Notes under the pieces: model-generated | Told to the model about the DNA's origin: nothing | What the model saw: only the letters and a program-made list of their open reading frames with translations | The model's database searches: none | Source: Rickettsia sp. | GTDB lineage: Bacteria; Pseudomonadota; Alphaproteobacteria; Rickettsiales; Rickettsiaceae | DNA length: 64,000 bases | Assembly (NCBI GenBank): GCA_023269695.1 | Contig: JAHFPS010000001.1 | Coordinates: 44,366 to 108,365, forward strand | Reading direction: 5' to 3' | Position numbers and translations under genes: made by a program | Shown: positions 20,327-61,073 of the stretch, piece after piece | Layout of the letters: each line of letters starts with the position of its first letter | How positions within the stretch are numbered: the stretch's first letter is position 1

Positions 20327-20430
20327 TATAGCTAACCCGAATAAGTTCTTCCTTTTTGTGTCATCCCTGTGAAAGTAGAGGATCTAGATTCCCGCCTACG
20401 CGGGAATGACAATAGGGTGCGGGAATGACA
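20327..20430. repeat. A left TIR with inner hairpin units, truncated
   Basis: TATAGCTAACCCGA...GATTCCCGCCTACGCGGGAATGACA. Confidence 0.8.
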
Positions 20431-20548
20431 CCTTTTTCGTTTAAATATAATAGATGTTGTATTTCTAGACTTTTGACGGAACGATTAACTATAATTACTT
20501 GGTAATGCTGGTTTTAATAGGAATATAAAATAAAGAAAACTAAAAATT

Positions 20549-22120
20549 ATGTCATCATTTGTTTCACAAAAATATAAGAATATAGGTATAGTTGGTTTGG
20601 GTAAGACTGGTATGGCTGCTTATCAATCATTAAATAAAGTAGCTAGGATAATTTGTTATGATCAAGTAAGTAGCAGTAGGGATGCTTTCAGTAAAATCTA
20701 TGGAAACGATAATTTGGTTAGCTTATCTGATCGGCGGTGGCAGGAGCTTGATAAGATACTACTGAGTCCAGGCGTTTCCTTGTCGCATGATATTGTTACA
20801 ATGGCTAATTCCCGTAATATACCAATAACCTCAGATATAGACCTATTATTTGAGGAGGTTAAGTTCAGAGGGGGCAATAAAGCTAATTTCATTGGTATAA
20901 CTGGTACTAATGGTAAGAGTACTACCACAGCTTTAACCGGTCATATTTTACAATTTTGTAATTTTGATTACCTAGTTGGCGGAAATATTGGTTTTCCTGC
21001 TTTAAGTATGGGATTAGATTGTCAAGGATATGTATTAGAGCTATCTTCATTTCAGTTAGACTTATTAAGCAGTTTTAAAGCTAAAATTGCTGTGCTTCTT
21101 AATATTACCGAAGATCATTTAGATCGACATAATAATATACAAGGCTATATTGCCGCTAAAAAGAAAATCTTTGATCGAATGGATAAAGATTCATTTGCTA
21201 TAATTAGTGTTGATGATGAAATTACCAACAATATCTTCCTAGAATTAGAAAATGAAAATAAAACAAATATAGTACCAATCTCTGTTGGTAAAATCCTTGA
21301 TAAAGGAGTGTCAATTTGTAATAATGTTGTTTATGACAATATTTTTGAACCGATTACTATTAATCTCCATAATAATAGTTCTTTACAAGGCATACATAAT
21401 CAAGAAAACATTGCCGCTAGTTATGCAGCTTGTCGGATTATAGGGGTAAGACCAGAACAAATAATTGCTGCCATCGAGTTGTTTAAGGGGTTGCCGCACA
21501 GGATGCAATATGTTGGAGCAATATACTCAGATCATTCGAATATAGCTAATCCGATTAGCATTACGCCAAATTCACAGACGTCATTGCGAGGAGCCACTTT
21601 AGCGGCGACGAAGCAATCCAGAAAAGTGATTAGAAATGGATTGCTTCGTTCGGGCTTCGCACCTCCTTGCAATGACGCCAGTTTACTATGGCTAAATGCT
21701 AGTAAGGTTAGCTATATGATAAATTTTTATAATGATAGTAAGGCTACCAATGGCATTGCTGCTTCTAAATCCATTGCAGCACTTGATAATATATATTGGT
21801 TAGCTGGAGGGGTGGCAAAAGAAGGGGGAATAACAAATTTAGAGCCATGGTTTGATAAAATTCGTAAGGCTTATCTTTTCGGTCAAGATAAAGAACTTTT
21901 TGCATCGTCACTTAAGGGCAGGGTAGATTTCCAAATTTGTCATGATTTACAGGAGGCTTTTAATGCTGCCGTTAGGGACGCAATGCAGGATATAGGGGAT
22001 ATAAAAAATATCTTGCTAGCTCCGGCTTGTGCCTCTTACGATCAATTTAAAAATTTTGAAGAACGTGGAAATCTATTTATAGAATTATATAATATTATTG
22101 CTAATCATGATCAAAGATAA
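20549..22120 (+). CDS. murD: UDP-MurNAc-L-Ala:D-Glu ligase with a 58-aa in-frame insertion
   Basis: ITGTNGKSTTT, ELSSFQL, LNITEDHLDRH, GLPHR, NDSKATN, LAPACASYDQF. Confidence 0.96.
   Translation: MSSFVSQKYKNIGIVGLGKTGMAAYQSLNKVARIICYDQVSSSRDAFSKIYGNDNLVSLSDRRWQELDKILLSPGVSLSHDIVTMANSRNIPITSDIDLLFEEVKFRGGNKANFIGITGTNGKSTTTALTGHILQFCNFDYLVGGNIGFPALSMGLDCQGYVLELSSFQLDLLSSFKAKIAVLLNITEDHLDRHNNIQGYIAAKKKIFDRMDKDSFAIISVDDEITNNIFLELENENKTNIVPISVGKILDKGVSICNNVVYDNIFEPITINLHNNSSLQGIHNQENIAASYAACRIIGVRPEQIIAAIELFKGLPHRMQYVGAIYSDHSNIANPISITPNSQTSLRGATLAATKQSRKVIRNGLLRSGFAPPCNDASLLWLNASKVSYMINFYNDSKATNGIAASKSIAALDNIYWLAGGVAKEGGITNLEPWFDKIRKAYLFGQDKELFASSLKGRVDFQICHDLQEAFNAAVRDAMQDIGDIKNILLAPACASYDQFKNFEERGNLFIELYNIIANHDQR
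21541..21716. mobile_element. Shell-A MITE in frame within murD
   Basis: TATAGCTAATC...GGTTAGCTATA; 176 bp including both TA, net 174 bp. Confidence 0.93.
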
Positions 22121-22132
22121 TCATAATAATGA

Positions 22133-22290
22133 ATTCACCTTACGCATGGCATTTAAAAATTGCAAAAAAGTACAAGATGTCATTGCGAGACCACGTGAGT
22201 GTAGTGGCAATCCACATTCATTAGATTGCTTCGTCGCCACCAAAGTGGCTCTTCGCAATGACGCCAGGCTGTGTTATGCGTAAGGTGAGT
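22133..22290. mobile_element. Shell-G element at the murD/ftsW junction
   Basis: ATTCACCTTACGCAT...ATGCGTAAGGTGAGT TIR; AATGA direct repeats at 22128-22132 and 22291-22295; core inside. Confidence 0.88.
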
Positions 22291-23418
22291 AATGAATTAT
22301 CTAACAATTACCTAAAATGGTGGTGGCGTAGTATCGACCAGCAAATGATTATTGCTTTAATAATCCTGTTTGTTTTTAGTATGATGTTAGTTACCACAGC
22401 AGGGTCAGCAGTAGCAAATAGAATAGGGCTTAATGAGCATTATTTTGCCTCTAGACAATTAATTTATCTTGCTAGTGCCTCGTTACTTATCATTATTTTT
22501 GCTTCTTTCTCAAGAAAATGGCTAAAGAGATTATCAATTATAGGATTTATTGCCAGTATAGTATTATTAATTTTAGTTAGATTTTATGGTTATGAGGTTA
22601 AGGGTGCTATTCGTTGGATTAATATTCTAGGTCTTTCGATGCAGCCTTCAGAATTTATAAAACCATTTTTTGCGGTAGTGGCGGGCTGGATATTATCATT
22701 GAAATTTGAGGGAGAGTTCCCAAGTTTTTCTATCTGTATAGTTCTATATGGTATCATTGCCTTATTATTAATTATCCAGCCAGATTTTGGTATGTTAGTT
22801 ATGGTTACTGCAGTTTTTGGTATTCAACTTTTTATTGCAGGTATGCCGATATTTTGGATTATACTGGCTATTTTTATGTTGCTATTTGGCGTTACAGTGG
22901 CTTATTTTTGGTTGCCTCATGTAGCACAAAGGATTAATAGTTTTTTTGATCCGGAGAGTATTAGTAATTATCAAGTTAGTAAGTCAATTAGAGCATTTGA
23001 GCATGGCGGTTTGTACGGTTGTGGTCCTGGTGAAGGAGCGGTAAAACAAGTATTGCCGGATTCTCATGCTGATTTTATCTTTGCCGTTGCTGGTGAGGAA
23101 TTTGGAGCAATTATCTGCTTGATAATTGTAGGAATATTTGCTTTTATAGTGATTCGTAGTTTACTAAAACTCATTAATGAAGAAGATAAATTTACTCAAT
23201 TGGCAGCAAGTGGTATTGTTGCACAGATAGGTTTACAAGCAATAATTAATATAGGTGTTACCTTGAATTTATTACCAACCAAAGGTATGACCTTACCCTT
23301 TATCAGTTATGGTGGTTCTTCAACTTTTGCCATAGCTATTGCTACAGGGATGTTGCTTGGTTTTACCAAACATAAAACTTCTCTTACTAACTATAAAATT
23401 CAAGATATTGATATATGA
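22276..23418 (+). CDS. ftsW: Cell division SEDS protein FtsW
   Basis: GAIRWI, MQPSEFIK, QPDFG, PDSHADFIF, LPFISYGGSS; start ATG lies inside the G TIR. Confidence 0.95.
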   Translation: MRKVSNELSNNYLKWWWRSIDQQMIIALIILFVFSMMLVTTAGSAVANRIGLNEHYFASRQLIYLASASLLIIIFASFSRKWLKRLSIIGFIASIVLLILVRFYGYEVKGAIRWINILGLSMQPSEFIKPFFAVVAGWILSLKFEGEFPSFSICIVLYGIIALLLIIQPDFGMLVMVTAVFGIQLFIAGMPIFWIILAIFMLLFGVTVAYFWLPHVAQRINSFFDPESISNYQVSKSIRAFEHGGLYGCGPGEGAVKQVLPDSHADFIFAVAGEEFGAIICLIIVGIFAFIVIRSLLKLINEEDKFTQLAASGIVAQIGLQAIINIGVTLNLLPTKGMTLPFISYGGSSTFAIAIATGMLLGFTKHKTSLTNYKIQDIDI

Positions 23419-34609: not shown

Positions 34610-35248
34610 TTAAGATTTTTTATTAGACTTCCTGCAAAACTCTACTTCTGCTGGTGATTTGCACGTCGACGCGGTACTCGAATCTTCGCATACACTAGAG
34701 TACGCTGCGGTTCGAGGTGAAGAGTCTCCTTCAAATCCCTCAGCACAAGTGACTTTTGCAGGAAGTCTATTCATTAAATTTCTGAACATTTCATCTGTCA
34801 ATACCAAAGAGGCTTTTTTTATCATATCAAATGAAAGCACTATATCTTTACCATTATTATTCAGATAAATTTTATTATCTTCAGTTTTAACTATCTTTCC
34901 CTGATATCGAGTTTGACCATTTAGTAATTCTTTTAATTTTATGGTAGCTTCTCTACCGAGAAATCTAGTGTAATCTTCAAATTTTATTAATGGACGTTCG
35001 ATACCTGCTGAACAAACTTCTAAAAAATATTTATCACTAATTATATCTTCAACATCTAAGAGTGCCGAGATATTTTTACTAACATTACGACAATCTATTA
35101 TATTAACCTTATTACCATCCAATCTATCTATTAACACTTCAAGTACTTTATGGCTTGAACCCTTTAAAGTTACTTTTACCAAATCAAAACCAAGATCTTT
35201 TATGTTATCTTGTATAGCATTAATAATTTGTTGTTCTATAGTTTGCAT
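34610..35248 (-). CDS. rimP: Ribosome maturation factor RimP with a 49-aa RPE insertion near the C-terminus
   Basis: CRNVSKNISALLDVED, LEVCSAGIERPL. Confidence 0.95.
   Translation of the reverse strand: MQTIEQQIINAIQDNIKDLGFDLVKVTLKGSSHKVLEVLIDRLDGNKVNIIDCRNVSKNISALLDVEDIISDKYFLEVCSAGIERPLIKFEDYTRFLGREATIKLKELLNGQTRYQGKIVKTEDNKIYLNNNGKDIVLSFDMIKKASLVLTDEMFRNLMNRLPAKVTCAEGFEGDSSPRTAAYSSVCEDSSTASTCKSPAEVEFCRKSNKKS
34625..34768. mobile_element. 144-bp RPE-1-like palindromic element in frame in rimP
   Basis: AGACTTCCTGCAAAA...TTTTGCAGGAAGTCT; ATT on both sides; encodes the GFEGD..RTAAY..V.EDSST peptide. Confidence 0.9.
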
Positions 35249-38683: not shown

Positions 38684-38827
38684 AGACTTCCTGGATAAGC
38701 CAATCTAGTTGGTGATTTTGTCGTCGAAACTCGCCTCCGCTCCTCACGTACGTTTATGTACGCTGCGGTACTCGGCTTCGTTTCTCCTAAAAATCTCTCA
38801 ACTATCTTTGACTTATCCAGGAAGTCT
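38684..38827. mobile_element. 144-bp RPE-like element (variant subfamily)
   Basis: AGACTTCCTGGATAAG...CTTATCCAGGAAGTCT; TGT on both sides. Confidence 0.88.
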
Positions 38828-39811
38828 TGTTTGAAAATTTGTTAATTCCAGCATCAAATATTCGTCCATAGGTATCTTACTTTGATTAAGCATTCTATTG
38901 ATATTAGAACCGAGTGCTTTAAATAACTTACCTTTGGCAATCACCGTTCTAGTGCCAACTGGTACTTTACCATGCAGAGCATATGACACAATTAATGGAT
39001 AACTAATATCACCAATTTTTATATCTAGTTTCTCACCTTTTTGTACTGAATCATAAAGTACCTGACCATTCGATAATTTAGTAATCTTTGCGTCAACTCC
39101 TACTTTATCTCCACATAATAAGGGTATCCTATAAGCTATTTCATCATCAAATATCTTTACTTCATGACTATTAACAAAATTATTAGGTAATATTGAATTT
39201 AGGACAATATTAACCCTATAAGGTGAATCATATGCTTTATTTTCTTCGTTAGAATATGCATATTTTGTAGGAAGTATAGCTTGTCTGGTTTGTCCAACCA
39301 TCATCCCTACTACTACAGAATCAATTCCAGGCATGATTGCTCGAGAACCAAGGGTAAAGGTTTTGGTATTTTCACTGAGTAAATTATTGTTAATATCCAA
39401 TAATTGGTAATGTAATGTAACTACATGACCACAAGTTGCTGGACCAACAGTCCCATTACCAAAGCTGTTAATCTTAAACATTGGCTGAATTAAATCTCTA
39501 TTAACCTCTATAGTATATTTACCATCAGTAATAGGTTTGTTAGTTGGTTGTAGTAAATTTTCAAAGAATAGTCGACCTTCTTCTGTTTTAAGAGCATTGA
39601 TCAAAACTTTTGAAACAGTTTTTTCAAGGAAATTACCAGTTAATGGTATATTCGCTTGTTCAGTAGAGGTAGTGCTAGTATTGTTATTACTTTCGGATTC
39701 ATTGGCTGTCTGAACCTTAGGGGTGCTTTCCTCAGGTGGAGATTGCGTTTTCATTTGAACAATAGAGTAAATAATTGCTGCAGCAATTATAAAAGTTAAA
39801 GCTTTTTGCAT
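38813..39811 (-). CDS. Exported protein with FKBP-like peptidyl-prolyl isomerase fold(s)
   Basis: CGHVVTLHY...TFTLGSRAIMPGID..VVGM.VG..R pattern; true start MQKALT at 39811 (the ORF-track extension is repeat-derived). Confidence 0.7.
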   Translation of the reverse strand: MQKALTFIIAAAIIYSIVQMKTQSPPEESTPKVQTANESESNNNTSTTSTEQANIPLTGNFLEKTVSKVLINALKTEEGRLFFENLLQPTNKPITDGKYTIEVNRDLIQPMFKINSFGNGTVGPATCGHVVTLHYQLLDINNNLLSENTKTFTLGSRAIMPGIDSVVVGMMVGQTRQAILPTKYAYSNEENKAYDSPYRVNIVLNSILPNNFVNSHEVKIFDDEIAYRIPLLCGDKVGVDAKITKLSNGQVLYDSVQKGEKLDIKIGDISYPLIVSYALHGKVPVGTRTVIAKGKLFKALGSNINRMLNQSKIPMDEYLMLELTNFQTRLPG

Positions 39812-39856
39812 ATAATATTCCTCTCTTAAGTATCTTTTAGTTTGGTTTATAAAACA

Positions 39857-40034
39857 TATAGCTAATCCGAGTAACATTACTCTGTCATTGCAAGGAGTAC
39901 ACAAGTTCCAGGCGTCATTGCGAGGAGCAACTTTAGTGGCGACGAAGCAATCCAAAAAAGTAATCAGAAATGGATTGCTTCGTCGGCTCACGCCTCCTCG
40001 CAATGACGGAATAATGTTAGTTGGGTTAGCTATA
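39857..40034. mobile_element. Shell-A MITE
   Basis: TATAGCTAATC...GGTTAGCTATA. Confidence 0.9.
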
Positions 40035-44186: not shown

Positions 44187-44335
44187 AAATATTGAGTATG
44201 TACTCGAATGATTTGAAGAATTGGAACGTAAAACGAGGGGTGAGCGAACGGAGCGTAGTAAATCTACGTGAGTACGCGAATGCCCCGAAATTTTACGGAG
44301 CCAATTCTTCAAAGCAGAAGAGTATATTTCTATGA
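44183..44335 (+). CDS. Candidate 50-aa repeat-derived bridging ORF
   Basis: Manual translation [14 protein letters not shown]...KQKSIFL*; ATGA overlaps with the lipB stop and the next start. Confidence 0.35.
44199..44326. mobile_element. About 128-bp TA-flanked RPE-like element
   Basis: TGTACTCGAATGATTTGAAGAATTGG...CCAATTCTTCAAAGCAGAAGAGTATA. Confidence 0.85.
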
Positions 44336-50364: not shown

Positions 50365-50559
50365 TATAGCTAATCAGATTAGCATTACGCCAAATTCACA
50401 GACGTCATGGCGAGGAAGACCGTAGGTCGACGAAGCAATCCTGTTTTGTGTCATCCCTGCTTCAGTGCGGGAATGACAACTTACAATTGCTTCGTCAGCT
50501 CATGCCTCCTCGCAATGACGCCAGTTTACTATGGCTAAATGCTAATCTGGTTAGCTATA
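50365..50559. mobile_element. Shell-A MITE with arms nearly identical to the murD insert
   Basis: TATAGCTAATCAGATTAGCATTACGCCAAATTCACAGA...GGTTAGCTATA. Confidence 0.92.
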
Positions 50560-55490: not shown

Positions 55491-55765
55491 TATAGCATTT
55501 CTGTCATTAGACCTCCTTCGAAACTCGCTTGTGCTGAGGGATTTGAAGGAGGCTCGGAACGGAGAACCGCATCGTACTTAAATGTACGTGAGGATTCGAG
55601 TACCGAATCGACGTACAAATCACCAGCAGAAGTAGAGTTTCGAAAGAGGTCTATTGTGAGAAGACTGTAGGTCGACGAAGTAATCCAAGAGCATGGATTG
55701 CCACGACCACTACTTGTTCTCGCAATGACGAAGATGTTATCTAGAACCTTAACGGGTTAACTATA
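55491..55765. repeat. Degenerate A element whose core is interrupted by an RPE-1-like copy
   Basis: TATAGC...GGTTAACTATA. Confidence 0.8.
55509..55652. mobile_element. 144-bp RPE-1-like element
   Basis: AGACCTC...GAGGTCT with ATT on both sides. Confidence 0.9.
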
Positions 55766-59792: not shown

Positions 59793-59804
59793 TAAGATGG
59801 TCAA

Positions 59805-59979
59805 TGTAGCTAACCCGATTAGTATTTATCCACGCAAACTGGCGTCATTGCGAGGAGGTGCGAAGCCCGAACGAAGCAATCCATTTCTAATCACCTTTCT
59901 GGATTGCTTCGTCGCTACTAAAGTAGCTCCTCGCAATGACGTCCGTGAATTTGGCGTAATGTTATTCGGGTTAGCTATA
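59805..59979. mobile_element. Shell-A MITE
   Basis: TGTAGCTAACCCGA...GGGTTAGCTATA. Confidence 0.9.
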
Positions 59980-60942: not shown

Positions 60943-61073
60943 TATACGCGAATGCTTTAAAGAATTGGCTCCTGCAAATACTTGTGGGGTATTCGCGTGT
61001 TCACGTACTAGTTGTACGCTCCGCTCGCTCATCCCTTGTTTTACGTCCCAATTCTTCAGATCATTCGCGTATA
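60943..61073. mobile_element. 131-bp TA-flanked RPE-like element
   Basis: TATACGCGAATG...CATTCGCGTATA perfect 12-bp TIR; same family as 44199. Confidence 0.88.

Follow-up and report, generated by a model that had tools for sequence, protein, structure and literature searches.

The 64,000-nucleotide stretch of Rickettsia sp. DNA analysed here (contig JAHFPS010000001.1 of assembly GCA_023269695.1; in the following called the window; G+C content 33.6%) carries on its forward strand a murD gene (positions 20,549–22,120) that encodes a UDP-N-acetylmuramoyl-L-alanine--D-glutamate ligase of 523 amino acids, of which residues 332–389 are encoded by a palindromic repeat element lying within the open reading frame (ORF). 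The murD equivalog model TIGR01087 matches the protein with 371 bits at a cutoff of 212, and this match is broken in two around the insert, comprising residues 11–324 and the C-terminal part. The nearest homologues are MurD proteins of 463–466 amino acids from Candidatus Tisiphia (Torix-group Rickettsia) symbionts, which are about 92% identical to the 523-residue protein when one gap is left out, and by these MurD relatives the host is judged to be a Candidatus Tisiphia symbiont itself.

What are the exact limits of the insertion? The element including both flanking TA dinucleotides occupies 176 bp of the forward strand (21,541–21,716) from TATA to TATA, beginning with TATAGCTAA and finishing with TTAGCTATA, as had been proposed in a first-pass annotation made from the letters alone. 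Removal of 174 bp (58 codons) in silico yields ...GLPHRMQYVGAIYSDHSNMINFYNDSKATN and a protein of 465 amino acids (...YSDHSNMINFYNDSKATN), exactly as long as P0002 and P0003, its nearest orthologues, the latter of which reads ...YSDHSNMIKFYNDSKATN at the site, in agreement with the claim that this deletion restores near-normal spacing. The same annotation had called for an alignment of orthologues, and this alignment provided both the empty site and the 465-residue forms. On the DNA level the nearest Tisiphia orthologues have the empty site AATATGAT; in orthologue L001 (GCA_020881175) the empty site reads CATTCGAATATGATAAA, as compared to CATTCGA-ATAT-AGCTAA...TTAGCT-ATAT-GATAAA at the filled site of the window, a net gain over L001 of 174 bp. 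The insertion point is located between the codons AAT and ATG, corresponding to N331|M390 of the present protein. The 465-residue form of MurD is found in four more Tisiphia-clade genomes, and at least five related genomes, as well as strains represented in the public runs X4, X6 and X12, are without the insert at the orthologous position. In X6, which contains two strains, and in X12, all about 9% divergent, positions 21,541–21,714 are skipped exactly (174 bp, with three ambiguous letters), and the X4 strain is free of the insert with a slightly different loop sequence.

The comparison of filled and empty site leaves four base pairs, ATAT, that can be assigned to either side; the alignment permits an extension of the left copy of the duplicated TA (21,541–21,542) up to ATAT at 21,540–21,543 and of the right copy (21,715–21,716) up to ATAT at 21,714–21,717. 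However, all full-length copies of the element in the window end with TATAGCTAAC...GTTAGCTATA, the bases outside of TATA are unrelated between copies, and the empty site does not contain TATA. Given these shared ends, unrelated flanks and the empty site without TATA, the only consistent reading of the sequences is a 172-bp element, TAGCTAA...TTAGCTA, with duplication of TA. The TA duplication proposed in the first-pass annotation is therefore upheld by the net gain of 174 bp and the TATA on all full-length copies, but the empty site alone, with its ATAT ambiguity, would not have been sufficient, and the duplication narrows to TA only once the family-wide termini are added to the comparison.

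The element itself is built in nested layers. The left terminal-inverted-repeat (TIR) arm of 36 nt, which begins with TAGCTAATCC (21,543–21,578, forward strand), is followed by core unit 1 (21,579–21,620, forward strand), a CGTC-tagged sequence resembling repetitive extragenic palindromes (REPs), of the layout CGTC-ATTGC...GCAAT-CCA and with the end GCAATCCA. A spacer of 16 nt (21,621–21,636, forward strand) would form the apical loop of a hairpin and leads to core unit 2, which repeats unit 1 in inverted form (TGGATTGC...CAATGACG; 21,637–21,677, reverse strand), and to the right TIR arm of 37 nt with the end GGTTAGCTA (21,678–21,714, reverse strand). Nested inverted repeats within the element are complementary to 79% over 29 nt, to 85% over 20 nt and to 100% over 13 nt, and the predicted fold of its RNA has a free energy of −81.3 kcal/mol as compared to −41.4 ± 4.1 kcal/mol for shuffled sequences (z = −9.8). 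Contig similarity in public runs begins at 21,579/80 and stops at 21,620 or 21,649, and depth ratios indicate roughly 500–570 copies of the core unit per genome and about 30–80 copies of the arms. By its sequence the element is modular, consisting of TIR arms that enclose an inverted CGTC pair, with the two layers acting as separate repeats.

Copies of this kind are frequent in the window. The local family has the termini TA|TAGCTAAC...GTTAGCTA|TA, and the ends TATAGCTAAYC and GRTTAGCTATA are common to elements with different interiors. The terminal 11-mer TATAGCTAAYC occurs 40 times with at most one mismatch, as compared to 4.8 expected occurrences, and 37 related intervals are found in total. 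The closest full-length paralogue (59,804–59,979, reverse strand) is also 176 bp long, is 90% identical and lies in an intergenic region just downstream of a response-regulator gene. It is a better match than the intergenic copy at 50,365–50,559 (forward strand) to which the first-pass annotation had pointed, and which does share the arms, at 72% identity overall. That copy has arms and CGTC units as in the murD element and in place of the central spacer a small palindrome, GTCATCCCTGC...GCGGGAATGAC, which suggests that one palindrome is nested within another. Related core units are found in loci L007 and L013 of the genus Rickettsia, e.g. in R. asembonensis, and the arms are seen solely in the closest Tisiphia genomes; the TIR shell thus appears to be Tisiphia-specific. 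[quoted passage not shown]

How can an essential gene be read through such an element? The TATAGCTAA termini contain TAA or TAG in two of three phases and the reverse orientation is closed in all phases, so that only one of six geometries (frame +1) is free of stop codons, and this is the one found in murD. The open geometry together with the net length, which is a multiple of three, makes read-through of murD possible. The resulting 58 added residues have a net charge of +6 and include GATLAATK and SGFAPPCNDASLLWLNASK. An AlphaFold2 model of the 523-residue protein, based on 118 homologues, has a mean predicted local distance difference test (pLDDT) score of 85.5, with values below 50 for residues 330–386, which are placed between the strands 320–328 and 388–395, and values mostly above 90 for the remainder. 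Solved MurD structures are the top matches of the model in Foldseek (TM about 0.8), and the insert aligns between residues 307 and 313 of E. coli MurD, i.e. at the turn 308–312 of the first β-hairpin of domain 3. In the model, the insert lies in a surface hairpin turn that opens the C-terminal domain, a position compatible with the fold; the location in the C-terminal domain given by the first-pass annotation is thereby refined to the turn at its start. The HR and NDSKATN motifs, which flank the site, are 15 residues apart in 84 of 120 homologues, 20 residues apart in the Tisiphia group, and up to 34 residues apart in homologues without a recognizable element.

Moreover, the same turn carries inserts in other lineages. 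MurD of Trichorickettsia mobilis (P0099) has an insert there with a predicted hairpin of −78.5 kcal/mol and a curated RPE1 domain (48.6 bits), RPE standing for Rickettsia palindromic element, and MurD of a Tisiphia metagenome-assembled genome (MAG; P0007) has a long insert in the same turn that consists of a different repeat. Other Rickettsia MurD proteins contain RPE1 (P0087) or RPE3 (P0131) at other sites. Whereas an NCBIfam search recovered RPE1 in P0099 and P0087 and RPE3 in P0131, the same search with E-values up to 10 found no domain in the insert peptide of the window, in the other near-open frame or in the 23-residue fragment of the third frame. For the assignment to the families RPE-1 to RPE-8, Di Nocera et al. 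(2013) served as a basis along with the NCBIfam models.

Is the enzyme still functional with such an insertion? It could be imagined that MurD was inactivated or crippled and is now a young pseudogene, or that peptidoglycan synthesis is being lost; the insert is situated only five residues ahead of the NDSKATN substrate-binding motif, both reductive evolution and pseudogenes are frequent in Rickettsiaceae (PMC1779305), and the 5′ end of the adjacent ftsW was likewise struck by an element. Such an inactivation nevertheless seems improbable. The element is in the single permissive geometry that keeps the frame open, whereas its closest intergenic copy at 59,804–59,979 has one stop in this frame, and all 51 of 51 columns that are invariant in an alignment of 118 sequences are kept. 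Pairwise ω values (ratio of non-synonymous to synonymous substitution rates) of murD against five orthologues are 0.14–0.25, in the same range as for the insert-free orthologues among themselves. The changes private to the window sequence comprise 12 synonymous and 7 non-synonymous substitutions, equivalent to an ω of about 0.15, and so few non-synonymous changes would hardly be expected under neutrality (binomial p = 8e-5). In addition, full-length MurD proteins of two other lineages have inserts in the same loop, and murG is intact, as is the body of ftsW. Conversely, the insert could have acquired a function, either as a hairpin that regulates the dcw operon by pausing, RNase III processing or attenuation, or as a basic loop that mediates a new interaction of MurD. 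The very stable RNA structure and the net charge of the loop are in line with such a co-option, and beneficial effects of RPEs have been left open in the literature (PMC2229807). It is, however, a still more remote idea than inactivation, as the insert is present in this strain only and all close relatives examined are without it. Among 5.8 billion proteins the peptide was found in no other host protein, just in five tiny ORFs on intergenic copies, a query consisting of the right half of the insert and the C-terminal domain did not retrieve a second insert-bearing MurD, no intrinsic terminator accompanies the element, and a search of Rfam with E-values up to 1 gave no match to an intron or other RNA family.

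The latter result also speaks against the insert being removed after transcription or translation in the manner of an intron or intein, which would leave a normal mature enzyme. Excision would be exactly reversible in sequence, and a closed RNA hairpin would bring both junctions together. However, the peptide contains no intein or other domain in any tested frame, 58 residues are far below the size of an intein, and the R. conorii guanylate kinase discussed below, as far as it is described in PMC2229807, retains its RPE insert in the expressed protein. The X12 contig that skips 174 bp had been considered as a candidate for RNA-level removal and was ruled out, its roughly 8% substitutions identifying it as an orthologous empty site, and the skipping contigs with about 9% divergence are in general orthologous empty sites and not spliced RNA; removal of the insert is hence hardly conceivable. 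Equally little weight can be given to the last explanation, an assembly artefact, which the first-pass annotation had itself considered next to the existence of a second, intact murD. A highly repeated element, inside of which short-read graphs break, might be mis-threaded into murD. Yet in X1 (2021) and X2 (a groundwater metagenome, 2022), independent public runs from different studies, unitigs cross the left junction (21,330–21,580) as well as the right junction (21,674 onward) with zero mismatches, and the unique 69-nt middle piece (21,565–21,633) is also present in the runs. Joints across the empty site are seen in neither of the two runs, nor is a further allele of murD with 80% identity or more, and the identical 523-residue protein is called on two contigs. 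Since both junctions are found at 100% identity in two independent runs, the insert is not an assembly artefact, and this explanation is excluded for practical purposes.

These considerations leave as the likely explanation, and one in which we place considerable confidence, that a TA in murD of a Tisiphia symbiont was the target of a non-autonomous palindromic element of the RPE/MITE kind and that the insert-bearing enzyme is still active. A transposase acting in trans would have mobilized the element, which landed on the TA in murD, doubled it and added 174 bp. The landing site is a permissive loop and the phase the single permissive one, and the murD frame is open. The hairpin would then be part of the transcript, the protein would carry a loop on its surface that is floppy and basic, and the enzyme would keep its activity, the insert being a neutral or slightly harmful passenger that is kept for doing little harm. 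Translation of the insert as a loop we infer on the grounds that the frame is open, the motifs are intact and selection is purifying. Several points weigh against this explanation. The purifying-selection signal may largely predate the insertion, and a hairpin of −81 kcal/mol in the mRNA could lower expression. The loop is predicted to be disordered by a model that had no homologous information for the insert. X21, a metatranscriptome of the same sample, has zero contigs on murD, and the other runs labelled 'RNA?' contain only strains about 9% divergent. Finally, neither the window nor 1.3 Mb of retrieved loci yielded a transposase with matching ends. Pairs of termini 0.9–2.3 kb apart were inspected as possible autonomous partners and rejected, as they enclose housekeeping genes and no transposases, and ten unassigned ORFs contain no transposase domain. 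The mobilizing enzyme may be a DDE transposase of the IS630 or Tc1-mariner type, for which the TA duplication is the only indication in hand.

How does the element relate to known palindromic repeats? In-frame insertions of RPEs into protein genes have reportedly been known since 2000, being described, it is said, by Ogata and colleagues in 2000 and 2002 and by Claverie and Ogata in 2003. The genome of R. felis contains 728 RPEs, 85 of them within ORFs (PMC1166351), and R. bellii 526, of which 53 are within protein genes (PMC1458961). In-frame RPEs in many Rickettsia genes are also described in PMC10969869, and a gene with one RPE is known from a Torix Rickettsia (PMC5656822). The murD element resembles RPEs in being short, abundant and palindromic and in interrupting, without a frameshift, a conserved housekeeping gene whose orthologues are without the insert, with a fixed reading frame and, according to the model, at a site on the surface of the fold. 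Moreover, MurD of other Rickettsiaceae holds the curated RPE1 and RPE3, once in this same loop. The first-pass annotation, correct as to the MITE-like character of the element, did not recognize this well-known phenomenon. Unlike RPEs, the murD insert peptide matches none of the RPE models of NCBIfam, the element has 172 bp plus TA instead of the 100–150 bp usually quoted, and it possesses distinct outer TIR arms known from close Tisiphia relatives only. The closest functional precedent is the guanylate kinase of R. conorii, which with its RPE is expressed and active with altered substrate affinity (Abergel 2006, as far as related in PMC2229807 and PMC3733652). In both cases an essential enzyme carries a palindromic insert, and by analogy MurD may tolerate its own; the guanylate kinase protein, though, was expressed and assayed, whereas the MurD case is known from DNA alone.

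The interior of the element resembles the CGTC-type REPs, of which CGTC-1 and CGTC-4 are the counterparts of the R. conorii families RPE-6 and RPE-4 (Di Nocera et al., 2013, PMC3733652). Like these, the murD core units start with CGTC followed by AT and end with a CCA tail, they form an inverted dimer with a short spacer that could fold as one long hairpin, and units of this type also occur singly at high copy number, sometimes within genes. In contrast to CGTC REPs with their stem of 8–9 bp and loop of 4–5 nt, the murD units are 41–42 nt long with an interrupted stem, the outer part of which has no more than 5 bp while the inner part is degenerate. A further difference is the TIR shell around the dimer, which has a parallel in PMC3733652 for GTAG dimers only, found inside TATAGGA...TCCTATA palindromes of Anabaena variabilis. 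With the bacterial MITEs (Correia/NEMIS, ERIC, RUP; PMC2229807) the murD element shares a length below 200 bp, TIRs, 5′-TA-3′ at both ends, a target duplication, a transcript predicted to form a long stem-loop and one open reading frame. Unlike for these MITEs, no cognate insertion sequence was found in the window and the 1.3 Mb of retrieved loci. For RPEs, target duplication is given as '?' in a 2007 review (Delihas, PMC2229807).

A second element is found immediately downstream, in the first codons of ftsW (22,136–22,289, within 22,127–22,298). It is 154 bp long with the ends CACCTTACGCAT.../...ATGCGTAAGGTG and is bordered on both sides by the 9-bp direct repeat TAATGAATT; the orthologue has an empty site at this position, where murD and ftsW overlap by 14 nt. 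As the net gain of 163 bp is not a multiple of three, the original start of FtsW (MIKDNHNNE) is severed and the ORF restarts within the element (MTPGCVMRKVSNELSNNY...). Its interior is a CGTC inverted dimer of the kind of the murD core, and shell and duplication length differ. Similar CGTC dimers in two shells only a few hundred bases apart, one with TA duplication in murD and one with 9-bp duplication in ftsW, suggest that RPE cores spread via MITE backbones. RPE cores might colonize, or be captured by, different MITE backbones, each of which would be moved in trans by its own transposase. We know of no transposase for palindromes of the CGTC/RPE type. That the TA-duplicating TIR shell is a vehicle that moves such palindromes is possible, though on balance rather doubtful; if it were true, RPE transposition could be approached directly through this genome.

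Other observations concern the surroundings of murD. In public run X5, which holds a strain about 9% divergent, a contig over 21,300–22,000 has the 3′ part of murD joined, at the same junction, to 120 nt from the right side of a similar element, and the contig of the left flank goes into an element of the P0007 type instead (AATATTTTGGAGAATAGAGACAATCAAGGG). This pattern reflects either a compound insert in the murD loop or two co-occurring strains. The intergenic region between pepA and murD contains at 20,327–20,493 an element with ends of the TATAGCTAAC type and a different interior (GTCATCCC...GGGAATGAC palindromes), just 5′ of the murD start where the promoter would be expected. In the corresponding region of the Platyusa symbiont (L001, 1–774) a Transposase_31 gene (PF04754) precedes murD in place of pepA, so that synteny upstream of murD varies among close relatives.

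Farther away in the window, an element with termini of the same family and a length of 178 bp (39,857–40,034) lies just upstream of a gene for an FKBP-type isomerase-like protein and artificially lengthens the 5′ end of its ORF (38,813–40,003), the true start of which is probably the internal MQKALTF. The insert repeats of the two other lineages have relatives here as well: palindromic copies at 55,506–55,656 and 34,624–34,769 are related to the RPE1-type insert of Trichorickettsia MurD, and those at 60,953–61,073 and 44,198–44,326 to the insert of P0007. With these two additional pairs, the number of distinct palindromic families that share the 64-kb stretch comes to at least three or four. 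Furthermore, a glutamine-synthetase-like ORF (677–1,759), which matches TIGR00653 and TIGR03105 weakly and in its C-terminal part only, passes in frame through core-type palindromes at about 1,241–1,336 (…VIARPRECSGNPHSLDCFVAAKAAPRNDV…); it may hold a second in-frame insert of the window or be a decaying gene.

The murD case is a clean but ordinary example of an RPE, and the current understanding of these elements is unchanged by it. What it adds is an exact pair of filled and empty site, by which TA duplication is shown for an RPE-like element. The same hairpin turn of MurD was struck independently by three palindromic families in three lineages, which marks it as a natural permissive insertion site in Mur ligases. 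Given a permissive loop and an open phase, a compact symbiont genome can thus absorb selfish DNA within an essential enzyme.

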